Virus record (IMG/VR): IMGVR_UViG_3300044538_000007
Coordinates: 1-51,336 of that record
From: a virus
Lineage: Duplodnaviria > Caudoviricetes
DNA: 51,336 bases
Strand: one strand, 5' to 3'
The notes under the pieces are model-generated. The model saw only the letters and a program-made list of their open reading frames with translations. It had not been told where the DNA came from and did no database searches. The position numbers and the translations under genes are program-made. Position 1 is the stretch's first letter; each line of letters opens with the position of its first letter. Shown piece by piece: positions 1,785 through 48,823 of the stretch.

Positions 1785-3176
1785 ATGGGTATCTGGGAGC
1801 GTGTCTTCCGCCGCCGGGCGACCGAGGGGCGTTCGTCGGTGCAGACGTTCGTGGATCTGATCACCAATTCGGACCTGTTCCCCATGCTGCGTACCACGAT
1901 GCCGGCGCTCGACGAGGAGCAGGTGGTTGGCAGCCTGTCGCAGGTTGCGAAGACGAATGGGCCGGTGTTCGCGCTGATGCTGGCCCGGATGCAGGTGTTC
2001 TCCCAAGCCCGTTTCCAGTGGACCCGGTTCCAGCGGGGCGAGCCTGGTGACCTGTTCGGCTCCGACGAGCTGTCGGTGCTTGACCGGCCGTGGCGGGGTG
2101 GGACGACCGCGGACCTGCTGTCCCGGATGGAGATGGACGTCACCGGGGCGGGGAACTTCTACGGCCGCCGGGTTCGGCGGGTCCGCTTCGGTGAGGACCG
2201 CATTGTTCGGCTGCGGCCGGACTGGGTGACGATCATCATGGGTTCGCGGGAGGACGCCGAGCATCCGGCCGAGGCCGCCGACGTTGAGCTGCTCGGCTAT
2301 GCGTATGCGCCGCGGCACGAGCGGGGTGACCGGCTCCTCGTGTTGGAGCCGGATGAGGTGGTGCATTTCGCCCCGTACCCGGACCCGGACGCGGTGTTCG
2401 CCGGCCAGTCCTGGGTGACCCCGGTCATCCGGGACGTGTGGGGCGACAACGCCGCAACCATCCACAAGGACCGGTTCTTCCGCAACGCGGCCAGTCCCAA
2501 TCTGGCCATCAAGTTCGACCCGTCGATCACCATCGACGCGGTCAAGGAGTTCAAGGAACTGCTTGAGGCCGAACACAAGGGCGCGTGGAACGCATACAAA
2601 ACCCTGTATCTGGGTGGTGGCGCGGACCCGGTCGTCATCGGCAGGGACATGCGGCAAGTCGATTTTGCGGTGACGACAGGTAAGGGCGAGTCGCGGCTGG
2701 CCGCCGCGGCGGGGGTGCCGCCGTCGTGGGTCGGCTTCTCCGAGGGGCTGCAGGGCAGTTCGCTGAACGCGGGCAATTTCACCGCCGCTCGGCGCCGGTT
2801 CGGCGACGGGACAATGCAACACCTGTGGGCCAACGCGGCTGCGTCGTTCGAAACGATTCTGACGCCGCCGTCGTCGCGGTTCCCGGACTCGGCGCCGGCC
2901 CGGCTGTGGTTCGTGACCCGGGGCATTCCGTTCTTGAACATGGACGCCAAGGACGCGGCCGAGGTGCAGTCGCAGGAGGCGCAGACCATCACCGCGTTGG
3001 TGCGTGACGGGTTCACCGCGCAGTCGGCGATCGCCGCGGTGCAGAACCAGGACTGGTCGCTGCTGGTGCACACCGGAATGGTGTCGGTTCAACTGATTCC
3101 GCCCGGCCAGGCGACTGCGAACGGCAACGGAAACCAGGAAGGCGCCAGGGCAGCGCTGCTGGGAGGCAAAACATGA
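1785..3176 (+). CDS. Portal protein (HK97-like)
   Basis: Position after terL; GNFY, RLRPDWV, FFRNAASP, LAAAAGVPPSWVG motifs. Confidence 0.9.
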   Translation: MGIWERVFRRRATEGRSSVQTFVDLITNSDLFPMLRTTMPALDEEQVVGSLSQVAKTNGPVFALMLARMQVFSQARFQWTRFQRGEPGDLFGSDELSVLDRPWRGGTTADLLSRMEMDVTGAGNFYGRRVRRVRFGEDRIVRLRPDWVTIIMGSREDAEHPAEAADVELLGYAYAPRHERGDRLLVLEPDEVVHFAPYPDPDAVFAGQSWVTPVIRDVWGDNAATIHKDRFFRNAASPNLAIKFDPSITIDAVKEFKELLEAEHKGAWNAYKTLYLGGGADPVVIGRDMRQVDFAVTTGKGESRLAAAAGVPPSWVGFSEGLQGSSLNAGNFTAARRRFGDGTMQHLWANAAASFETILTPPSSRFPDSAPARLWFVTRGIPFLNMDAKDAAEVQSQEAQTITALVRDGFTAQSAIAAVQNQDWSLLVHTGMVSVQLIPPGQATANGNGNQEGARAALLGGKT

Positions 3177-4144
3177 CCACGGTGCTGGATCCGCGGCAGG
3201 TGCTGCGGTCGGAGATCCGGTCGCACTTCTTCGAGTTCCGCGCCGCCGAACCGGGTTCGGACGGCGACGGCCGGACCCTCGAAGGATATGCGGCGGTGTT
3301 CGACCAGCCGACGACCATCGAGTCGTACGCCGGCGACTACGAGGAGGTCGTGAAGCGGGGCGCGTTCCGTAAGACGCTGCGTGAGCGGGCGCCGGTGATG
3401 CAGTTCGACCACGGCAACGACAAGCGGGTCGGGTCGGCACCCATCGGCGGGATCGAGGATCTGCACGAGGACGATGAGGGTCTGTTCGTGCGGGCCCGGC
3501 TGTTCGACACGGAGCGGGTGGAGGACATTCGGCAGGCCATCGCCGCGCAGGCCATCCGGGGCATGTCGTTCAAGTTCCGGGTGTTGCAGGACCGGTGGGT
3601 GGACCGGGACGGGAAACGCATCAAGGACGACGACCTGGCCGACCTGCTGGCGGACCCAGGCGACCGTGGCCCGATCCGCCGTGAGATCACCGAGGTTCAG
3701 CTGTTCGAACTCGGCCCGGTGGTGTTCCCCGCCTACGAGCAGACCAGCGTCGGTGTGCGGGGGTCGGTGTTCGACCCGAACCGGGTGGCGCTGCGTGGGG
3801 TGGTCGCCCAGTTCGGATTGGACGTGCGGTGCATCCGGCGGCACCTGCAGGTGTTCGACGCCGACGCCCGGGCAGCGCTGGCGGATGAGATCGCCGACAG
3901 TTTCCCCGAACTGCTGCAGGTGCTGCAGGAACGTGCCGTGGTGGCCGAGGCCGAGGGCATCGCCGCTGCCGGACTGGACCCTGCCGCCACCGCCGCGTTC
4001 GTTGCCGATCCAGAGACTTCTCCCGAGCCGGCTGCGGCCACTCGGGAATCGAGAGACACCGAGCCGGCGCCGGTGCGCCACTCGGCCTTCCTGACGGAGG
4101 CCGCCGGCTGGCACCTCCCCGACAACCCGTATCGACGGAGGTAA
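3173..4144 (+). CDS. HK97-family prohead protease
   Basis: LEGYAAVFD, FDHG, GLFVRARL, GMSFKF, LFELGPVVFPAY. Confidence 0.93.
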   Translation: MTTVLDPRQVLRSEIRSHFFEFRAAEPGSDGDGRTLEGYAAVFDQPTTIESYAGDYEEVVKRGAFRKTLRERAPVMQFDHGNDKRVGSAPIGGIEDLHEDDEGLFVRARLFDTERVEDIRQAIAAQAIRGMSFKFRVLQDRWVDRDGKRIKDDDLADLLADPGDRGPIRREITEVQLFELGPVVFPAYEQTSVGVRGSVFDPNRVALRGVVAQFGLDVRCIRRHLQVFDADARAALADEIADSFPELLQVLQERAVVAEAEGIAAAGLDPAATAAFVADPETSPEPAAATRESRDTEPAPVRHSAFLTEAAGWHLPDNPYRRR

Positions 4145-14084: not shown

Positions 14085-16871
14085 ATGTCCGAAAAGGACC
14101 TGAACTACCGGCTCACCGCCGACTCGTCGCAGATGGACAGGGGTTTCAAGTCCGCCGAGGCCAGCGCCCGGGTGTTCGAGCGGGAGCTTGCCCGGCTTGA
14201 GGCGCAGCAGAAGCGTGTCCACGACGCCATGAGCATGGTCGGCAAGGGCATGCTCGCCGGCGGCGCCGCGATCGCCGCCGGCCTGGCCCTGGCGGTGAAG
14301 GCCGCCATCAACTGGGAATCGGCGTGGACCGGCGTGGCGAAGGTCGTCGAAGGCTCCCCCGAACAGATGGCCGCCCTGGAAGAGCAGCTGCGCGGCCTGA
14401 CGTTGGTGCTGCCCCAGTCCGCGCAGGAGATCGCCGGGGTGGCCGCCGAGGCCGGCGCCCTGGGCATTGCCCGCCAAGACATCGCCGACTTCACCAAGAC
14501 CATGGTGATGATGGGGACGGCAACCAACCTCACCAGCCTGGAAGCCGCCGACGCGTTGGCCCGGCTGATGAACATCATGAAAACCGCTCCGTCCGACGTG
14601 GACCGGCTCGGGTCAACCATCGTCGCGCTCGGCAACGCTGGCGCGTCCACGGAGTCGGAGATCACGGCGATGGCGCTGCGGATCGCCGGGGCCGGGCAGA
14701 TCATCGGCCTGTCCGAATCGGATGTGCTCGGGTTCGCGTCTGCCCTGTCTAGTGTGGGTATTGAGGCGGAGGCCGGCGGGTCGGCGATCTCCACCGTGTT
14801 CGTGAAGATCGAAACGGCGGTGCGGTCCGGCGGAGAAAAGCTGGACCGATTCGCGGCGATTGCCGGCATGACCGCCGAGCAGTTCCGGCAGGCGTACCAG
14901 ACCGACGCGGCCGGCGCCATCGACACCTTCATCCAAGGGCTGGGCGGAATTGCCCGCTCCGGTGGGGACGTGTTCAGGACGCTTGAGGGTCTGAACATCA
15001 CCGAGATCCGGCAGCGGGACGCGCTGCTGCGGCTGGCCGGCGCCGGCACGATCCTCACCCAGTCGCTGCAGACGGGTGAGCAGGCATGGCGGGACAACAC
15101 AGCGTTGGCAGCCGAGGCGGAACGGCGGTACCAGACGGTTGAGGCGCGGATGCAGATCGCCCGCAACGCCATCACCGACCTGGCCATCGACCTGGGGCAG
15201 GTGCTGCTGCCGGTGGTGGGGAAGGCCGCGGACACCGTGTCCGGGCTGGTTCAGGTGATCAACGACATGCCTGGCCCGCTGAAGACCGCCGCCGTTGTGG
15301 TGCTCGCATTGACGGCCGGGCTGGCGCTGGTCGGCGGGGCCGCTTTGGTCGCGATCCCCCGCATCGCCGCGTTCAAGGCATCCCTGGACACGCTCGCCGC
15401 GTCGGAGGGCCGGGCCGCCGCCGCCGCGGTCACCGCTGGCCGGGCGATCAGCACCACCGGCAGCCTGCTCGCCGGCCCGGTCGGTATCGCGCTGGCCGCC
15501 GCTGTCACCGCGTTCGGGATCTTCGCCGCCAAGCAGGCCGACGCCAAACGCCGCGTCCAGGAGCTGACCGAAACCCTGGACAGGCAGACCGGTGCCATCA
15601 CCGAGGACACCCGGGTCAAAGTCTTCAACGAACTGCAGACCTCGGGCATGGCCGACGCTGCGCAGCGGCTGGGTATCAACCTGGCCGACCTGACCGACGC
15701 CGCCCTCGGCGAGGCGGAGGCGCTGGCCCTGGTGAACAGGGTCATCGCGGAGAACGCCGACAAGTCGAAGGTGCCGCAGGCGCAAGGCAAGGAGGAAGCC
15801 CGGGCCGCACTGCAGCGGGTCAAGGATGCGATCGCGTTGAAGGAGGCACTGGAGCGGCAGTCCGGTGCGGTGTCCGATTCCCGTGAGAAGTGGCAGCAGC
15901 AGAAGGAGGCTGTCGGCGGGGCGGATGAGGCGGCCAGGCAGGTGGAGCCGTCGGTCCGCCAGCTCGGCGAAACGTTGGGTGTGTCGGGGCAGCAGGCTGA
16001 GGACGCCTCCAAAGCGGTCGACGAGCTGAGCAAGGAACTGGACACCCTGTTCAACACGCTGTTCGGGGTGGAGGAGGCCGAGGACGCCACCGCGGAGGCG
16101 TTCCAGCGGGTCATTGACACGGTCAAGCAGGCCACCGGTGAGCACGACAAGCATGCCAAGTCGTTGGACGGCAATTCGAAGGCCGCACTGGCGAACCGGG
16201 ACAACGTCCGCAACCTGGTCAAGTCCTACTACGACCAGATCAACGCGTTGGCCGAGTCCGGCGCCAACTCGGACACGCTGCGCAAGAAGACGGAGGAGCT
16301 GCGCAAAAAGTTCGTTGACCAGATGCGGCAGGCCGGCTTCTCCGAAGCCGCGATCGCCGAGTATGCGGCCGCGTTCGACGACATCCCTGCGGCGGTGACC
16401 ACGGCGCTGAAGGCGGACACGGCGCAGGCGTTGCGGGCCATCAAAATCCTGCGGCAGGCCATCCGGGACATTCACGGTAAGACGATCGGTATTCACGTGT
16501 CGGGTGGGATCGGCTCCGGCACGCAGGTTGCCGGTGCCTCCACCGGCGGCCCGATCCTCGGATCCACCCCGAAGGGTGTGGACGCACAGTTGCGCCGGGT
16601 CGCCGTCGGCGAGCACGTGCTCACCGCCGAAGATGTGGATGCCATGGGCGGACAGTCCGCCGTGTCCGCATTCCGCCAATCGCTGCACTCCGGAGCCCGG
16701 ACGGCGGTGGCTGCGCCCACCCTGGCCGCCGCGTCAGCACCTGCTGCGGCGCCGTCGTTCGACGTGCGCGTCTTCGTCGGGGACCGGGAGCTGACCGACA
16801 TCGTCAACGTGCAGATCTCCGAACATGACCGGGGTATTCGGCGCCGGGTACAGGCGGGGGTGAGGCGCTGA
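14085..16871 (+). CDS. Tape measure protein (TP901-like core)
   Basis: 928 aa, Ala-rich; WESAWTGVAKV, GIEAEAGGSAIS. Confidence 0.93.
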   Translation: MSEKDLNYRLTADSSQMDRGFKSAEASARVFERELARLEAQQKRVHDAMSMVGKGMLAGGAAIAAGLALAVKAAINWESAWTGVAKVVEGSPEQMAALEEQLRGLTLVLPQSAQEIAGVAAEAGALGIARQDIADFTKTMVMMGTATNLTSLEAADALARLMNIMKTAPSDVDRLGSTIVALGNAGASTESEITAMALRIAGAGQIIGLSESDVLGFASALSSVGIEAEAGGSAISTVFVKIETAVRSGGEKLDRFAAIAGMTAEQFRQAYQTDAAGAIDTFIQGLGGIARSGGDVFRTLEGLNITEIRQRDALLRLAGAGTILTQSLQTGEQAWRDNTALAAEAERRYQTVEARMQIARNAITDLAIDLGQVLLPVVGKAADTVSGLVQVINDMPGPLKTAAVVVLALTAGLALVGGAALVAIPRIAAFKASLDTLAASEGRAAAAAVTAGRAISTTGSLLAGPVGIALAAAVTAFGIFAAKQADAKRRVQELTETLDRQTGAITEDTRVKVFNELQTSGMADAAQRLGINLADLTDAALGEAEALALVNRVIAENADKSKVPQAQGKEEARAALQRVKDAIALKEALERQSGAVSDSREKWQQQKEAVGGADEAARQVEPSVRQLGETLGVSGQQAEDASKAVDELSKELDTLFNTLFGVEEAEDATAEAFQRVIDTVKQATGEHDKHAKSLDGNSKAALANRDNVRNLVKSYYDQINALAESGANSDTLRKKTEELRKKFVDQMRQAGFSEAAIAEYAAAFDDIPAAVTTALKADTAQALRAIKILRQAIRDIHGKTIGIHVSGGIGSGTQVAGASTGGPILGSTPKGVDAQLRRVAVGEHVLTAEDVDAMGGQSAVSAFRQSLHSGARTAVAAPTLAAASAPAAAPSFDVRVFVGDRELTDIVNVQISEHDRGIRRRVQAGVRR

Positions 16872-18895
16872 TGCCGGATCTGTATGCCGACTATGCCGCC
16901 CTCGCCGCAGCGGAGACGGAAGGTGTCGACTACACGCGGACTGCGCAGACACCGTCGGGTGCGTGGTGGGCGGCCATTGCGATCCACGGTGGGCTGATCG
17001 AGGCCGGCACTGGACCCCTGGCGAAGCAGGTCGCCGATCTGCGGCGAATGGCGTTCTACGAGTTCAAAGGCATCCGCGCCGGCTCACAACCCGATTTGCA
17101 CATCACCAGCGAAAACTTCGACGAACCGAACGCGCTGGCCCTGGTCGCCAAGGCCGGCCGGATACTCAGCTTCCACGGCTTCACCGGCACGACCGGGGTT
17201 GAGGAAACCCTGATCGGCGGGTTGGACGCGGGGCTGCGGGACAAGGTGATGGCCGCCCTCGTGGCGGCCGGGTTCACGGTCTCCGTCGCCGCGTCGGAGT
17301 ATCCGGGTACGTCGGCGGACAACATCTGCAACAAGTCGGCCACCGGGGCAGGTGTGCAATTGGAGTTGTCCCGCGCGCAGCGTGAGGCATTCTTCCCCGG
17401 CGGCGACCTGACCCTCCCCACATTGGACGATCCGGATGCGCGGACGGCCACCTTCGACGCCTACGCTGCGGCGGTGGCGTCGGCGATGGTCCCGACCCTG
17501 GTCTACGACGCGCAGCTGTCCCGGGTGCGACTGTCAGGTGTGGCGCCGGGCTGGAAAGACAACTTCGGCCGCACGGTCGTCGACGGCTGGGAGGCGTCGA
17601 CCAGCGGACACAACTACATCACCGTCGGCGCGGCAACGGCGTTCCAGGTCAACGGTGGTGTCGGCAAGCACATCCACACCGCGGCTGCCGTGTCCCGCTG
17701 GTCTTTGGCCGCCACCTTGCAGGCCGACTGGGACGAGGCTGCCGAGGTGTCCACCGACCTGCTCGCCGCCGGAGGTGGCCAATTCCACCTGCTGATAGGC
17801 CGATCCACTGATGATGGGGCCACCTGCTATGCGGCCCGGGTTGAATTCTCGGCGACTCAGACGGTCATCCTGACTTTGCGGAAGCGGGTCGCCGGCACGG
17901 AGACGTTACTGGTGCAGCACACCACCGGCCTGACCCATGCGGCTGGCACGGCGGTGCGGTTCCGGTTCCAGGGCCTCGGATCGCAGCTGCGGGCGAAGGC
18001 GTGGCTCGCATCCGGCACCGAACCCGCAGCTTGGCAGCTGACAACCACCGACACGGACGTGACCGGTACCGGTCGGGTCGGTATCCGTTCCATCCTGGCA
18101 TCCACCTACACCGGCACCCTGCCGGTCACCTCGTCCTGGGGCAATGCGGTGTCCTACTCGAAGGCCACCGTCCAGCGGTCCACGGACGGGGTCCGCTGGA
18201 CGACTGTACGCGGCGCGGCCACATTGGCCGGTGACGCCTTCGGCCCGGTCGCGGTAGACGACTACGAGTTTGTCGCCGACGTGGCCAACCAGTGGCGGAT
18301 CCGTACGTTCGAGCCGTCATCGGGGCGGACGCTGGCGGTCGCGCAAGACTCGCTTGCCCCCGACCTGGCCGGTGTGGTGTGGCTCAAGTCGGTGGTGCGG
18401 CCGTTCCTGAACCGGCCGGTCCGCATCCGCGACCAATCAGATTTCACCCGGCCCAGCAGGTCTGGCCGCTTCCCCATCGTCGGCCGGTCGCTGCCCGTCG
18501 CGGTCACCGACGTCCGCGGCGGCAAACAGTTCGTGTTGGAGGTGTACGCCGCAGATGCGGTCGAGGCGCGTGTCATCGATCTGCTGTTGGCCTCCGGCGA
18601 CATCCTGTTCGTCCACACCCCGGCCACCGGGCGGCTGTCCAGGGTGCCCAGCGGCTACGTGGACGTGGGCGACAGCGTAGAGGAGATCCTGCCAACCGCC
18701 GACTACGACCTCGGCTACTTCGCCCTGCCCTGCGCCCATGTGGCCGCGCCCACCCCCGACGTGGTAGGGGTTACGTACACCTGTCAGGGTGTCCTCAACG
18801 ACTACGCCACCTGCGCCGACCTGCTGGCCGCGTTCGCCACCTGCGCCGACCTGCTCGACAACGTCGGCTCGGCCGAAGACATCATCGTCGAATGA
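16871..18895 (+). CDS. Minor tail (Dit-position) protein with an N-terminal poly-gamma-glutamate hydrolase (PghP/YjqB-like) domain
   Basis: AIHGGLIEAGT, LHITSENFDEP, SFHG, NICN...GVQLELS; C-terminal part resembles actinophage minor tail proteins. Confidence 0.75.
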   Translation: MPDLYADYAALAAAETEGVDYTRTAQTPSGAWWAAIAIHGGLIEAGTGPLAKQVADLRRMAFYEFKGIRAGSQPDLHITSENFDEPNALALVAKAGRILSFHGFTGTTGVEETLIGGLDAGLRDKVMAALVAAGFTVSVAASEYPGTSADNICNKSATGAGVQLELSRAQREAFFPGGDLTLPTLDDPDARTATFDAYAAAVASAMVPTLVYDAQLSRVRLSGVAPGWKDNFGRTVVDGWEASTSGHNYITVGAATAFQVNGGVGKHIHTAAAVSRWSLAATLQADWDEAAEVSTDLLAAGGGQFHLLIGRSTDDGATCYAARVEFSATQTVILTLRKRVAGTETLLVQHTTGLTHAAGTAVRFRFQGLGSQLRAKAWLASGTEPAAWQLTTTDTDVTGTGRVGIRSILASTYTGTLPVTSSWGNAVSYSKATVQRSTDGVRWTTVRGAATLAGDAFGPVAVDDYEFVADVANQWRIRTFEPSSGRTLAVAQDSLAPDLAGVVWLKSVVRPFLNRPVRIRDQSDFTRPSRSGRFPIVGRSLPVAVTDVRGGKQFVLEVYAADAVEARVIDLLLASGDILFVHTPATGRLSRVPSGYVDVGDSVEEILPTADYDLGYFALPCAHVAAPTPDVVGVTYTCQGVLNDYATCADLLAAFATCADLLDNVGSAEDIIVE

Positions 18896-37885: not shown

Positions 37886-38199
37886 CCGCCAACCCCATGA
37901 CCGCCGACCTGGCAGCCCTGTACGGCGTCGGCCTCATCGTCGCCGGTGCGTTCATCCTGTGCGCGCTGATGTGGTTCTGCCACAGCGCCCGCGACTGGCT
38001 GCAGGGACTACGTCAGGCGTTCCTGGACGGTAAGGCCCGTGGCGAGGCGGACGCGATGCGGCTGATGCACCGCAACGACTGCGACGACACGCCGACGGCG
38101 GTGGACGAGGCGGTGCTGCGCGCACAGATGGACTACGACCGGTATCGCTTCCAGTACCTGGCACCGGGGGAGCACGACATCGCCTGGAGGCGGCCGTGA
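37882..38199 (+). CDS. Membrane protein
   Basis: N-terminal TM segment; coupled. Confidence 0.6.
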   Translation: MTANPMTADLAALYGVGLIVAGAFILCALMWFCHSARDWLQGLRQAFLDGKARGEADAMRLMHRNDCDDTPTAVDEAVLRAQMDYDRYRFQYLAPGEHDIAWRRP

Positions 38200-39977
38200 C
38201 CCCGGAGATTGCGCAGCTGCTGCGGCAGCCGTTCCCGCCGGAGAAGATCGGCAAACTGCCGCGGGTCACCTGCGGCGACTGCCGGGACGCGCGGAGCCGG
38301 GTGTGCGACAAGCACACCAAGAGCCGCTGCGGCGAATGCGCATCCTGGATCACCGGGGCGCACATTCACCTGGACTTCGTGGGCCACGCCGACACCACCG
38401 ACCGGCTGCTCGAGGCGGACCCGGAGTGGACGTGGGAGCCGTTCGCCCTGGACCCGCGGGGCCTGCCCGCGCTGGACGACAACGGCGGCATGTGGATCCG
38501 GCTCACCGTGTCCGGTGTGACCCGCATCGGCTACGGCGACGCGGACGGGAAGCGTGGCGGCGCCGCGATGAAGGAAACCATCGGCGACTGTCTCATCACG
38601 GGCACACCGATCCTCACCCGTGACGGTTGGCAGCCGGTCGAGACCGTGGCCGTCGGCCAAGAGGTACCGACGCGCCACGGGTGGCGCCGGGTGACTGATC
38701 ATTGGCTATCGGCCGAGTCTGCGCCCGTGCTGGCAGTGCTAGTCGACGACGGCCGCGTCCTGGTGGCGACACCCCATCACCGCGTTCCGACACAGCGCGG
38801 CGCGGTATCGGTGCGGGCGCTCCGCAACGGAGATATGCTGTATGCATGGCCGGATACCGCAAGGCAGCCAACGCAGAAGACTTGGTCTGGGCTGGGCGCA
38901 TCTACCGCCGCCACCCCAACCATTCGGACAGGCACCGGCGGGTTTACTTCATGGCCACCACAGAACCTAGGACGTTCTTGCACCGGGATATCTATATCGC
39001 GGAGCATGGTGCCATCCCCGATGGCTGGCACGTCCACCATCGCGACCACGATCCTCTCAACAACGCCCCGGCCAACCTCGTCGCGATCTCCCCTGTTGAG
39101 CACGCCCAGCATCACTACGAGGAACGAGAGCCGTTGTCCTACCGCTGCGCGCATTGCGGTTGCGACTTCGCCTCCTACAAGCGCACACGCAACGTCCGGT
39201 GGTGCAGCGCCCGATGCAAGGAAGCGGCTCGGCGGGCCGCAGGGCTTGTCAAGCCTCGCCCCAGTACTGCCAAGCCGCCCATCGACCGGACCTGCGCCGA
39301 ATGTGGTGTCGCCTTCGCAACCACTAAGCCGTGGGCCGTCTTCTGTGGCCCCGCGTGTCGTGGCCGTGCTGGACGCCGGCGTCGCGCCGGTGTGGAACCT
39401 CAGCGTTGACGAGGTCCATGAGTACGTAGCCAACGGACTCTTCGTCCACAACAGCATCCGTAACGCGTCGATGCGGTTCGGGGTGGCGTTGGACCTGTGG
39501 CGCAAGGAAACCCATGTGGACGAGTCCACCGCACCCCGGCCGCGGCCACAGGAGCCGGCCCCGGTGCCACCGAACCGGCAGAACATCCTGACCCGCGCCG
39601 CTGTGAAGATCCGGGACGCCACCTCGAAGGATGACTGCGACCGGATCGGCCAGCGGATCACCGAGCATGAGAAAGCGCAGCGCATCACCGCGCAGGACGC
39701 GATCGATTTGCGGCGACAGCTGGTGGCCCGGCAGGAGGAACTGTCCCCGACCAGCGCGGTCATGCCGGTCACCGAACGACAGCACAAACGCATGCACGTG
39801 CTCTGGCCCCAGGTCGGGTTGGGTGGCACGGAGAACCGGGAGATGCGGCTGACCCGCACGTCACTGATCGTCGGCCGCGACATTGACTCGTCGGCGCACC
39901 TGACCGCAGCCGAGGCTGACCGGGTCATTGACGCGTTGGAGGCCGAACGCAAAGCGAGCAAGGAGGAAGCGAAGTGA
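38196..39977 (+). CDS. Rad52/Sak-like single-strand annealing protein containing an intein
   Basis: LRQPFP, LDFVGHA...DRLLEADPEWTW; spliced junction KETIGD|SIRNASMRFGVALDLW. Confidence 0.85.
   Translation: MTPEIAQLLRQPFPPEKIGKLPRVTCGDCRDARSRVCDKHTKSRCGECASWITGAHIHLDFVGHADTTDRLLEADPEWTWEPFALDPRGLPALDDNGGMWIRLTVSGVTRIGYGDADGKRGGAAMKETIGDCLITGTPILTRDGWQPVETVAVGQEVPTRHGWRRVTDHWLSAESAPVLAVLVDDGRVLVATPHHRVPTQRGAVSVRALRNGDMLYAWPDTARQPTQKTWSGLGASTAATPTIRTGTGGFTSWPPQNLGRSCTGISISRSMVPSPMAGTSTIATTILSTTPRPTSSRSPLLSTPSITTRNESRCPTAARIAVATSPPTSAHATSGGAAPDARKRLGGPQGLSSLAPVLPSRPSTGPAPNVVSPSQPLSRGPSSVAPRVVAVLDAGVAPVWNLSVDEVHEYVANGLFVHNSIRNASMRFGVALDLWRKETHVDESTAPRPRPQEPAPVPPNRQNILTRAAVKIRDATSKDDCDRIGQRITEHEKAQRITAQDAIDLRRQLVARQEELSPTSAVMPVTERQHKRMHVLWPQVGLGGTENREMRLTRTSLIVGRDIDSSAHLTAAEADRVIDALEAERKASKEEAK
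38589..39452 (+). mobile_element. Intein (288 aa, Cys1...His-Asn, Ser+1)
   Basis: Block A CLITGTPILTRDG, block B LVATPHHRV, blocks F/G VWNLSVDEVHEYVANGLFVHN/S. Confidence 0.93.
38846..39409 (+). CDS. HNH homing endonuclease with zinc fingers, overprinted out of frame inside the intein
   Basis: LHRDIY..EHGAIPDGWHVHHRDHDPLNNAPANL...EHAQHH; CAHCG...WCSARC; CAECG...FCGPAC; GGAG 13 nt before the ATG. Confidence 0.88.
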   Translation: MAGYRKAANAEDLVWAGRIYRRHPNHSDRHRRVYFMATTEPRTFLHRDIYIAEHGAIPDGWHVHHRDHDPLNNAPANLVAISPVEHAQHHYEEREPLSYRCAHCGCDFASYKRTRNVRWCSARCKEAARRAAGLVKPRPSTAKPPIDRTCAECGVAFATTKPWAVFCGPACRGRAGRRRRAGVEPQR

Positions 39978-40486
39978 GCCGGCAAGAGGACATCTCCCAC
40001 ATCCTGCTGTGGGAACAGCTCGCGGCCAAAGCCAAGGCCAAGGCGAGCGCGATCCGGGAGCAGCTGGCGGAGGATGCGCGGGCCGAGTTGAAGGAGCAGG
40101 GAACGGCGCCGACGTGGCGGCTACCCGAGGTCGGCGTGGTGTCCCTTCCCGTCAGCCAGGAGTCGGTGTACGTCCGGGACGAATCCGCACTGGTGGAGTG
40201 GGTGCGGGTGTTCCATCCCGACGAGATCGAAACCGTGGAGAAGGTGCGGCCGGGTTTCGTCAACACCCTGTTGTCGGAGTCGCGCGGCGAGGGCGAGGAC
40301 GTGGTGTGGATGCGGGAAGGCGCCTTGGTGGCCGGGCTCGGTATCCGGCCGGGTGGCCTGCCATTGGCCTTGTCGTTCCGCCCCACCCACGACGCACGGC
40401 AGGTTGCGGGGGCGGTGGCGGACAAGCTCATCGGCGAATGGGAGCAGCAACTGTCCGAGCCGGTTGTCATCGCCGGGGACGACTGA
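39974..40486 (+). CDS. Hypothetical protein (recombination module)
   Basis: RBS AAGGAGG; coupled. Confidence 0.7.
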   Translation: MSRQEDISHILLWEQLAAKAKAKASAIREQLAEDARAELKEQGTAPTWRLPEVGVVSLPVSQESVYVRDESALVEWVRVFHPDEIETVEKVRPGFVNTLLSESRGEGEDVVWMREGALVAGLGIRPGGLPLALSFRPTHDARQVAGAVADKLIGEWEQQLSEPVVIAGDD

Positions 40487-42771: not shown

Positions 42772-42961
42772 GGCCGCCGGCTGGCCGGTGGATTGTGACC
42801 AAGACTCTGACCGGCGCCCGCTACCCGTGCCGGTGCCACAAGAACCAGAACTGCCGGCCGCGGCGCTGCCCATGCGACGGCCGACCCGACGGACAGCACA
42901 TGCAACCCCGGTGCTGCGCACGCCGCGCGCACGACACAGCACAACGGACGAAGGAGAACGA

Positions 42962-43951
42962 GTGAGCGAGCTGGCCGCCCGCGGGGGCGAAGTTGAACTG
43001 GCTGGCGTCGAGCTGACCCGTACGGCGTTGACGCTGCCCGACGGGTTGGACTTCGACGACTGGGCGGCGTACGGCAAACGCCTGTCGCACATGGCCGAGG
43101 GTGTCATGTGGTGGATCGGCGACTGGTGGCGGTACGGCGAACACCGTTACGGCGAGCGCGCCGCGCAGGTACTCGACCCCGACACTTACTCGTTCCAGAC
43201 TTTCGCCGATGCGGGGTGGGTGGCCGGCAAGTTCGAAACTTCGGATCGATCCGAAGTTCTCTCGTGGACGCACCACCGTGTTGTCGCCGCTCTCGCTGGT
43301 GACGACCTGTCCAAGGCACGTCAGGCGCTGGCGCTGGCTGAGGAGCAGGACTGGTCCGTTCAGGATCTGCGGCGGCACGTGCGTGAGATCCGGCGGCAGC
43401 GACGGGTTGAGGAGATAGCTCGGCAGCACAGCGAAGACCCGTCGACGCTGGGCGCCTTCCCGGTGCTGTACGCGGATCCGCCTTGGCGGTACGACTTCGC
43501 CGAGGACGAGGAAAGCCGGGCGATCGAGAACCACTACCCGACCATGAGCGTTGAGGAGATCGCCGAACTCAAACCGCCGGCTGCGGAGGACGGCGTGCTG
43601 TTCCTGTGGACGACGAGCCCGAAGCTTCGCGAGGGGCTACAGATCGTCGATGCCTGGGGCTACGAGTACCGGACGTGCATGGTGTGGGTGAAGGACCGCA
43701 TCGGCATGGGCTACTACGCCCGCCAGCAGCACGAGTTGCTGCTGATCGGTGCCCGCGGCAGCATCCCCGCACCGCCCCCGTCGGTCCGTCCGGCGTCGGT
43801 TATCCACGGTCCACGTACCGAGCACAGCGCAAAGCCCGACGAGGCGTACCAGTTCATCGAGCGCATGTACCCGGACTACCCGAAGTGCGAGCTATTCCAG
43901 CGCCGCCCCCGAGAGGGCTGGGTCGGCTGGGGAAACCAGGTCGAGTCATGA
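42962..43951 (+). CDS. LmbU-like N-terminal domain fused to an MT-A70-family adenine methyltransferase
   Basis: WWIGDWWRYGE...LSWTHH; YADPPW, HYPTM, LFLW, HSAKP, ELFQR. Confidence 0.88.
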   Translation: MSELAARGGEVELAGVELTRTALTLPDGLDFDDWAAYGKRLSHMAEGVMWWIGDWWRYGEHRYGERAAQVLDPDTYSFQTFADAGWVAGKFETSDRSEVLSWTHHRVVAALAGDDLSKARQALALAEEQDWSVQDLRRHVREIRRQRRVEEIARQHSEDPSTLGAFPVLYADPPWRYDFAEDEESRAIENHYPTMSVEEIAELKPPAAEDGVLFLWTTSPKLREGLQIVDAWGYEYRTCMVWVKDRIGMGYYARQQHELLLIGARGSIPAPPPSVRPASVIHGPRTEHSAKPDEAYQFIERMYPDYPKCELFQRRPREGWVGWGNQVES

Positions 43952-47830: not shown

Positions 47831-47987
47831 GCCCCGCGACTGCGGCTTCACTTGGCGCCCGCAACCCGGCGAGAAGGTGCTCGGTCAGCACGTCTGCGCG
47901 CGCCTAGACGAGCACGACATGCACCGCTGCTGCTGCGGTGCCGAGAACTCGCAGACCACACCGAAGGAGGCCACCGATGCCGGCTGA
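47820..47987 (+). CDS. Small Cys/His-rich protein
   Basis: Flanked by a 17-bp direct repeat. Confidence 0.55.
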   Translation: MPAEPRDCGFTWRPQPGEKVLGQHVCARLDEHDMHRCCCGAENSQTTPKEATDAG

Positions 47988-48324
47988 GCCAACCTGGACC
48001 CCCGAAGACGTCGAACTCGTCGCGGAGGCGATGCACCGACGTGAGTGCAACTGCGGCGCGTCCGACGTGGTCTCACGAAACTGGGCCGAGGACGTCCTGG
48101 CTGCTTTGGCTGAGGCAGGCCGGCTTCGCGAACCCGGTGGCGAGCCGGACCTGTGGCAGTACGCGATTCCGTGCGCCGGCGGACCAGAGGAGCCGATTGG
48201 CCCAGTCCCGATTGAGGGCAAACCGCGCTACATCTCGCCGCGTTGGGTTCGTCGACCGCTGTACGCCGGTGGTTCGTGGCAGCCCGTGGACACCCCGAAG
48301 GACGGCCAGTATGCCGCTGAATGA
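47977..48324 (+). CDS. Hypothetical protein
   Basis: RBS AAGGAGG. Confidence 0.65.
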   Translation: MPAEPTWTPEDVELVAEAMHRRECNCGASDVVSRNWAEDVLAALAEAGRLREPGGEPDLWQYAIPCAGGPEEPIGPVPIEGKPRYISPRWVRRPLYAGGSWQPVDTPKDGQYAAE

Positions 48325-48823
48325 CATTACCGATGAAGGTTGGAAGGCAGGCGTCGCGGCCGCTCGCGACTGGGCACGCGTGCATGGACAGCCACAGCCA
48401 GACGATCGCATGCTCGACCACTTCGGCCGCGCCTACCACCAGGCGTCGGGCCGCGGTGTTGCCACCTGCGTCTTCTGCGACATCGTCGCCGGCAGAGCAC
48501 CGGCAGACATGGTGGCGGCAATTCCCGACTCGATTGCCTTCCGCCCGCTGAATCCGGTCGTGCCCGGCCACGTGCTCGTGGTGCCAAAAGTTCACGTCCG
48601 CGACGCAGCGGAAGATCCAGATATCACCGCAGCCACCATGAGGCATGCGGCCGTCTTGGCGTCGATAGTGACCCCGGGACAGTTCAACCTGATCACGTCG
48701 GCTGGGTCGGCTGCTACTCAGACGGTGTTTCACCTGCACGTCCACATCGTTCCACGCATTGCTGGTGACGGATTGTTGCTTCCGTGGCAGCCCGTGGACA
48801 CCCCGGAGGAGCCCCAGCCATGA
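48311..48823 (+). CDS. HIT-family hydrolase
   Basis: CVFCDIVAG, PLNPVVPGHVLVVPK, QTVFHLHVHIVPR. Confidence 0.92.
   Translation: MPLNDITDEGWKAGVAAARDWARVHGQPQPDDRMLDHFGRAYHQASGRGVATCVFCDIVAGRAPADMVAAIPDSIAFRPLNPVVPGHVLVVPKVHVRDAAEDPDITAATMRHAAVLASIVTPGQFNLITSAGSAATQTVFHLHVHIVPRIAGDGLLLPWQPVDTPEEPQP

Follow-up and report, generated by a model that had tools for sequence, protein, structure and literature searches.

An intein in a phage single-strand-annealing-like gene shares its DNA with a gene for an HNH endonuclease in another frame

Where does an intein carry its homing endonuclease when none is encoded in frame between its two splicing regions? The question is raised by the IMG/VR virus record IMGVR_UViG_3300044538_000007 (Duplodnaviria; Caudoviricetes), an entire assembly of 51,336 bases with about 68% guanine plus cytosine (GC), which was analyzed at full length and is hereafter called the window; its features lie on the + strand unless stated otherwise. 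A gene for a phage single-strand-annealing-like protein (38196-39977, a frame of 593 codons with zero internal stops) is interrupted there by an intein of 288 amino acids (38589-39452), and the same DNA encodes, in the -1 frame of the intein, an HNH endonuclease of 187 amino acids (38846-39409). This arrangement probably constitutes a two-gene mobile element, in which an intein in an annealing-like gene and a separately promoted HNH gene in its -1 frame are spread together by homing.

The intein extends from C132 (38589) to N419 (39452) and shows the motifs of class 1: T192-x-x-H195 in block B (TPHH, 38769-38780), the stretch VWNLSV in block F, and a VHN end (H418-N419) followed by S420, the Ser at position +1. 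The original prediction had recognized an intein from these motifs, and profiles and fold agree with it. Pfam Hint_2 matches the intein alone (E=1e-6), TIGR01443 (intein_Cterm) scores above its cut-off, the AlphaFold model of residues 129-419 superposes on the NpuDnaB intein (Z 21.0, root-mean-square deviation (rmsd) 1.8, 132 aligned) and Foldseek pairs the intein model with gp41-1 (E=2e-7); the insertion is missing from homologous alleles. The N-terminal splicing region (38589-38864, blocks A and B) is modelled with confidence, and the C-terminal splicing region (39342-39452, blocks F and G), supported by profile and model, overlaps the last codons and the stop of the HNH gene. A canonical bifunctional intein would carry an in-frame endonuclease between blocks B and F. 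Here that interval holds a disordered linker rich in serine, threonine and proline (38865-39341), and no nuclease family was found in the intein frame by Pfam, TIGR or PHROG profile scans. The linker had been described as free of stops and motifs, which holds, and as about 180 residues long, which does not: the part with a predicted local distance difference test score (pLDDT) below 50 covers residues 224-382, or about 159 amino acids, 46% of them Ser, Thr or Pro. Class 1 splicing is predicted to discard the linker and to leave a protein of 305 amino acids (593 minus 288). Within the family, the penultimate His is retained in 9 of 22 inteins (N, R, S, F, Q or Y elsewhere), while the remainder of block G is conserved.

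At an offset of +2 (equivalent to -1) relative to the intein frame, the ORF (open reading frame) at 38846-39409 encodes a protein with an HNH_3 catalytic core at residues 44-87 (38975-39106; Pfam PF13392, E=1e-12) and two zinc-binding CxxC..CxxxC patterns. The first zinc finger (C101, C104, C120 and C124; 39146-39217) is invariant in 22 sequences, and the second (C150, C153, C167 and C171; 39293-39358) is invariant in 13 close relatives and has a YacG-like fold (Z 5.4). The catalytic motif expected of an HNH homing endonuclease is intact, with H64, H65, N73, N77 and H86 invariant across 22 sequences. The HNH model has a pLDDT of 91, and its top structural match is I-HmuI, an intron-encoded nuclease. 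Up to E=1, Pfam assigns the protein to HNH_3 and gives no match to an endonuclease VII family, so that it is not of the endonuclease VII-like type (IPR004211). The ORF, its domains and its overlap with block F had all been described from the sequence and are borne out: the stop codon lies inside block F, 43 nt upstream of the intein end, and profile searches of the two frames give Hint_2 in one and HNH_3 in the other. The locus has the features of a non-canonical intein, namely an out-of-frame nuclease ORF, an open intein frame, an unstructured middle and purifying selection on the nuclease frame. On the - strand, a 407-codon antisense ORF (38777-40000) runs across the second half of the intein and has a counterpart of 292 codons in locus L001; it is probably a by-product of high GC content and two constrained sense frames.

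A protein search of which the best 120 of 234 matches were used provided 119 parsed proteins (the window included, P0100 left out). The intein is present in 22 of these and absent in 97. Cys1, TxxH, the terminal Asn and a +1 Ser or Cys are found in all 22 inteins; the length is 286-288 amino acids in 16, and 21 occupy one site. The remaining intein (P0021) uses a second insertion site in the annealing gene, five residues further downstream, and the Ser that follows the intein there is found at that position in 7/97 empty alleles. The linker is open in all 21 homologous intein proteins. In the DNA loci of four other members (L002, L003, L004 and L006), the HNH gene lies at offset +2 and starts at intein codon 86-87, the contig of L004 ending within the gene. 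A profile built from the linkers of nine loci gives held-out linkers 22-122 bits, compared with at most 12 for shuffled sequences; the linkers are therefore shadows of related HNH genes.

Selection falls on one frame far more than on the other. Over six locus pairs, the ratio of nonsynonymous to synonymous substitution rates (dN/dS), in values that are rough, is 0.10-0.32 when the shared bases are read in the HNH frame, 1.3-2.7 when they are read in the intein frame, and 0.04-0.29 for the N-terminal splicing region. A ratio that is low in the HNH frame and not in the linker is what had been predicted, and the intein-frame values above 1 reflect constraint acting on the other frame rather than positive selection. 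Similarly, the window and L002 are 37% identical over the linker DNA when read in the intein frame and 71% identical in the HNH frame. Taken alone, the open intein frame of the window is weak evidence, the sequence here having 65% GC: under synonymous-shuffle nulls, the probability that it is free of stops is 0.02 if codons follow extein usage and 0.36 if those of the gene itself are used. The strong evidence therefore comes from the family. Four AT-rich relatives have 0 intein-frame stops where 4-7 are expected (P<=0.004), and four free-standing or split relatives have 7-14 stops in the corresponding frame. The two tests that the original prediction had set for homologues, both frames open and dN/dS low only in the HNH frame, come out in its favor, and we regard it as virtually certain that both frames code and are kept by selection. 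The notion that the HNH gene was overprinted on the intein appears, on the other hand, to invert the relation: constraint rests on the HNH frame, which also has free-standing relatives, and the linker is probably a passive shadow. The HNH gene's +1 frame is expected to contain 1.6-6.9 stops and its +2 frame 2.8-32.4, a difference that may explain why the same offset recurs here and in both preprints on out-of-frame intein nucleases discussed below.

How, then, is the nuclease expressed? The original prediction proposed either initiation after a GGAG located 13 nt upstream of the HNH ATG or frameshifting. The GGAG is present (38829-38832) but is found in 2/5 family loci only, the other upstream words being GGCG (2/5) and GGGG (1/5). 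What is invariant instead is TATGCT (38834-38839), a predicted -10 box at -12 to -7 of the HNH ATG that is spelled by intein codons for D-M-L; it occupies this position in 5/5 family loci and is the sole TANNNT within 60 nt in each. TANNNT also occurs at -12 in 3/8 other loci, while its background frequency is 4/1736 (0.23%) of ATG or GTG starts on the + strand of the window. A TANNNT about 12 nt before the start is a signature of leaderless genes (PMC3160421), and the HNH start displays it. In Mycobacterium tuberculosis, a TANNNT -10 box lies 7-12 bp upstream of 73% of primary starts, with no -35 consensus (PMC3898074). The first T of the box is supplied by an Asp codon (38832-38834 in the window), which is GAT in 6/6 GC-rich loci, compared with 14/121 in the exteins and 11/27 in the earlier splicing region, and the residue after this Asp (M, I, K or T) has a codon starting with A in 21/22 proteins. 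In a wider set of 51 intact inteins, with four duplicates and four poor start calls dropped, TANNNT is found at -13 to -11 in 15 (exactly at -12 in 13) against a background of 3%, and a TTG stands at -35 spacing in 7 of these 15. These observations point to an internal -10 box at -12, which would fit better than GGAG or a frameshift. The nuclease seems to be a gene with a start of its own, and its translation from a leaderless mRNA made by an internal promoter is the probable route.

The alternative that survives best keeps the dual-coding element but dispenses with its promoter, the HNH being translated by internal ribosome binding at GGAG on the host mRNA. In the window and L002 the GGAG is present, with a duplex of about -6.5 kcal/mol, Shine-Dalgarno (SD)-like words precede the start in 27 of the 51 wider-family loci (background 9%), and SD motifs have been reported for the +2 ORF of a dnaX intein (bioRxiv 10.64898/2026.09.14.751524). 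Against it, a spacing of 13 nt is long, and GGAG is missing in 3/5 family loci where TATGCT at -12 is invariant. Furthermore, 0/51 wider loci have both signals and 9/51 have neither, an exclusion which is partly geometric because both words would have to occupy the same positions. On balance we consider internal ribosome binding unlikely, and leaderless expression from an internal promoter remains our preferred reading.

Whether the nuclease serves homing can be judged from the distribution of alleles. On an N-extein tree of 135 columns, with many open forks, intein presence requires 9 changes, of which 5 are forced by well-supported branches, compared with 20 for shuffled labels. The distribution is patchy, as is typical for a homing endonuclease, gain and loss not being distinguished. 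P0006, which has the intein, and P0092, which does not, are identical at 136/138 and 201/212 positions (95-99%). The +1 residue is Ala in 94/97 intein-free proteins and Ser (19) or Cys (3) in 22/22 intein alleles. In DNA, the +1 Ala is coded GCN in 79/79 intein-free loci (one of the two search patterns required Ala), and the +1 Ser of intein alleles is coded AGC in the four loci that include that end; two changes separate AGC from GCN, and a single one separates it from TGC, which is the most frequent +1 codon across the wider family. The intein-free alleles of loci L118-L197 provide 73 distinct sites. Since both residue and codon differ from those of intein-free alleles, the element likely brings its own +1 codon. 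P0092 is the lone empty allele with Ser and may represent a precise loss. We also considered an HNH protein that is expressed and selected but is not the homing enzyme of the annealing-gene site, having some other role in the phage or another target, with patchiness reflecting loss. Free-standing HNH relatives are known (L036, beside terS, and L012), and change counts on a tree cannot separate gain from loss. However, the 18 closest HNH sequences form one group (Shimodaira-Hasegawa-like approximate likelihood ratio test (SH-aLRT) 93) and all five with known DNA context lie in an annealing-gene intein; intein-free alleles are the majority (97/119 proteins), and the +1 residue tracks the intein. 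A non-homing role is thus improbable, and a role of the HNH in homing is strongly favored by these patterns.

Expression by frameshift deserves mention since the HNH offset is -1, and -1 is the commonest programmed frameshift; in the window, the HNH frame is also open for 49 codons upstream of the ATG, so that a fusion of N-extein, intein and HNH could be envisaged. However, the sole XXXYYYZ heptamer, at 38940 within the HNH gene, is not in phase, and nothing corresponds to it in L002, L003 or L006; stops shut the HNH frame 6-9 codons ahead of the start in three of four relatives; and a start codon (ATG or GTG) is conserved where 13 close HNH proteins begin. We judge this part of the original prediction very unlikely, and an independent start probable. 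An RNA element or intron was also sought and rejected, Rfam giving one chance-level match below the gathering score. As for an artefact or a relic (two compensating assembly indels, or a decayed in-frame nuclease), the window is a metagenome assembly, the one public DNA run found (a sediment metagenome) has no differences from it but is possibly its source and hence not independent, and in-frame HNH inteins exist in distant families, yet we regard this explanation as already refuted by the homologous loci, given that the same offset recurs in independent contigs and GenBank phage genomes, that catalytic and zinc residues are invariant, that dN/dS is low and that the HNH start and stop lie within the splicing regions.

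A dual-coding element with its own nuclease promoter could work in the following way. The host frame is open through all 593 codons, with splicing motifs and Hint fold intact, and the intein would splice itself out with the linker. Selection is borne by the HNH frame, the intein frame being kept free of stop codons. The D-M-L codons, where the N-terminal splicing region ends, spell a TANNNT from which the host's principal sigma factor would initiate transcription at the first base of the HNH start codon; neither an SD site nor a frameshift would therefore be needed. During co-infection, the nuclease would nick or cut the intein-free allele near the IGD-A(L/I)RN codons, and repair would insert a copy of the element together with the +1 codon that it brings, so that Ala is replaced by Ser or Cys. 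Such an element may have originated when an HNH gene that stood free in a phage entered a mini-intein or a split intein. The few stops in the HNH +1 frame could be cleared by synonymous change, and the same offset would then recur.

Several observations weigh against this scheme. Concerning the promoter, D-M-L may be conserved for the fold, which leaves the T of GAT as the sole free test, and the five TATGCT loci are related. A strict sigma-70 consensus scan, which requires a -35 match, found no promoter or terminator, nor does the window show an evident -35 box. Among public sequencing runs containing the window sequence, no RNA run is listed. Concerning homing, the intein alleles are clustered on the tree, as the change counts indicate; much of the inheritance is therefore vertical, and loss is indistinguishable from gain. 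The rejection of a single intein clade (approximately unbiased (AU) test, p=2e-7), which itself speaks for homing, was obtained on a subset of 32 rows, 20 with intein and 12 without, that was picked after the tree had been seen, with two long-branch rows left out. Concerning dual coding, matching DNA was found for 3 of the 21 homologous proteins, and for the rest the HNH frame is deduced from the linker shadow; the pairwise alignments behind the dN/dS values were based on the HNH frame, with synonymous sites almost saturated. Finally, the assignment of the host protein to Rad52/Sak is based on PHROG and annotation.

This last assignment was part of the original prediction and has one profile result in its favor: a match of the exteins to PHROG 3290, 'single strand annealing protein' (E=5e-46). 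The N-extein matches mycobacteriophage genes that bear this annotation. Pfam Rad52_Rad22, on the other hand, stays below its cut-off, with matches to intein-free homologues in 5/12 cases (E 0.014-0.19). A PDB sequence search using the intein-free alignment gave no match, and Rad52 was not among the fold-search matches, whose lists were filled by the Hint domain, so that a Rad52 fold is not excluded. We consider a Rad52/Sak-type protein likely. The N-extein (38196-38588) ends in IGD and aligns with intein-free homologues up to the insertion site, and the C-extein (39453-39977) begins with the AGC codon of Ser+1, where the family alignment has Ala in intein-free alleles. Portal, capsid, tail and WhiB proteins are also encoded in the window; WhiB is a pointer to an actinobacterial host, which is therefore likely. 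Among the other genes, that at 16871-18895, downstream of a tape-measure-like gene, starts with a poly-gamma-glutamate hydrolase domain (E=1e-49) and possibly encodes a capsule-degrading tail protein; an MT-A70-type methyltransferase (42788-43951) and a HIT-domain protein (47852-48823) were also identified.

Nested HNH inteins are not restricted to annealing genes. Related HNH genes are found at offset +2 within inteins in Tetrasphaera phage TJE1, Acinetobacter phage Highwayman and Rhodobacteraceae phage LS06, where the interrupted gene is annotated as large terminase, and related nested HNH inteins also occur in Streptomyces and Bacteroides genome contigs. Scanning viral contigs with an HNH alignment yielded 374 confirmed stretches in 11 of 64 collection parts, the best 80 of which were analyzed. 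Fifty-eight of these 80 have an intact intein with the nuclease at offset +2 and 0 have it in frame; 6 keep the two intein halves in a common frame but with intervening stops, 5 place the halves in different frames, 4 have an N half only and 7 are without intein. The share of 58/80 leans high because 4/10 query sequences were intein-derived and the intein profiles were self-made. Most hosts in the wider set read as terminase-like from a flanking motif. No close relatives of the intein were found in GTDB genome contigs or among the GenBank phages searched. A search for longer proteins, intended to reveal in-frame fusions, returned two matches only, one to a protein of zinc-finger repeats and one to the intein of a portal protein, in which a distant HNH lies in frame, and is weak as a negative; the genome scan also produced distant in-frame HNH inteins, which match short motifs only.

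In the GenBank records of TJE1 (L032, 2223-3176), L035 (2226-3206) and L037 (2501-3310), the terminase alone is annotated and the nested HNH is not; TJE1 has a TANNNT at -12 and L037 a strong SD. In Vibrio phages 1.245.O (L033) and 1.238.A (L034), at 2429-3419, the HNH lies between a terminase ORF, which ends at the HNH start, and a separate ORF with a Hint domain. This is the split (fractured) form of the nested-HNH arrangement, in isolated phages. The opposite frame relation was seen twice, in a DNA-methylase-like ORF (L028, 1789-3711, ShiLan-like) and overlapping the intein of a terminase-like ORF (L018, 1219-3801). In terminase-like hosts (the intact inteins among L038-L117), the insertion falls two residues before a motif Asp in 25 cases, one before in 19, directly after in 1 and two after in 6, with 4 unparsed. 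The site in the annealing gene is similar to the 'directly after' register, and D-A-(L/I)-R is common to both targets; this shared target is a possible route for host switching. A broader proposal, which we advance tentatively and hold to be somewhat less likely than not to be right in full, is that out-of-frame HNH inteins, far from being rare, are a large phage family whose nuclease is a separate transcription unit with its promoter in the splicing-domain codons, one stretch of DNA thus holding three layers of code, and that one branch moved from terminase-like genes to an annealing recombinase gene. There it would parasitize the very protein that would repair the element's own cut, and by rewriting the +1 Ala to Ser or Cys it would be freed from the need for a resident nucleophile.

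How does this element compare with known systems, as described in the available parts of the respective sources? Gosselin et al. (bioRxiv 10.1101/2025.01.02.630785) report actinophage inteins with endonuclease VII-like genes in frame 3 and consider such inteins under-recognized. Their elements and ours share a true intein, a same-strand nuclease at +2, an unstructured in-frame middle, an actinophage setting and a proposed origin from a free-standing nuclease gene. They differ in the nuclease, which is endonuclease VII-like there and an I-HmuI-like HNH_3 with two C4 zinc fingers here, and in the host, as an annealing-like protein is not among the host proteins of their section 6; the words 'promoter' and 'leaderless' do not appear in their main text. 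A second preprint (bioRxiv 10.64898/2026.09.14.751524) describes a cyanobacterial dnaX intein with a LAGLIDADG gene in the +2 frame and frame-dependent dN/dS, crediting Gorbalenya 1998. Offset, disordered intein-frame linker, dN/dS pattern and coexistence of full and empty alleles are common to both cases. The dnaX system differs by its LAGLIDADG nuclease, its chromosomal host gene and the SD motifs proposed for initiation, and mini-intein alleles are common there, whereas none were seen among the annealing-gene family here. As both preprints describe out-of-frame nuclease genes in true inteins, the original prediction overestimated the possible novelty of this feature, and the basic architecture, being already known, is no longer surprising.

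The ShiLan domain, a hidden out-of-frame HNH in actinophage methylases (PMC11855218), likewise places an HNH in a second frame of an insertion that is itself open and in frame. That work suggests leaderless initiation, with the promoter unnamed. The ShiLan insertion lacks a splicing domain and stays in the host protein, whereas a complete Hint domain flanks the HNH here. Fractured genes, in which a split intein is accompanied by a free-standing endonuclease with its own control or promoter elements (Dassa et al. 2009, PMC2677866), also have the nuclease gene between the intein halves, its 3' end overlapping the C-terminal intein part. There, the intein frame is broken and splicing occurs in trans, whereas the intein frame is continuous here; the broken form is also observed in relatives of our HNH, in L033 and L034 and in 11/80 of the scanned loci. 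Compared with I-HmuI (PDB 1u3e), HNH residues 14-93 align with Z 6.6 and rmsd 3.1 over 73 residues (Foldseek E=0.046), a modest match that says nothing about activity, and the C-terminal part differs here in consisting of two C4 zinc fingers.

In a literature search that left subscription journals largely outside, we found no report of an intein in a Sak/Rad52-type annealing protein, nor of an out-of-frame intein nuclease with an internal leaderless promoter; the available text of PMC4760082 does not name Rad52, Sak, RecT or Erf. Within these limits, the annealing-like protein is an added class of intein host, and the Ala-to-Ser/Cys swap suggests that inteins may be able to take sites without a +1 nucleophile. 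If our reading is true, many phage inteins regarded as 'decayed' or 'nuclease-less' would hold a working homing gene missed by annotation, and estimates of the number of mobile inteins would change. A separate promoter would set the timing and dose of the nuclease apart from those of the host protein, and would answer the question of expression left by three recent papers on hidden nucleases. The element belongs with the non-canonical inteins that have a same-strand, out-of-frame nuclease, and differs from those described in the type of its nuclease, in its host gene and in its likely start signal; what is new here is mainly the annealing-protein host, the Ala-to-Ser/Cys swap at +1 and this likely start signal.

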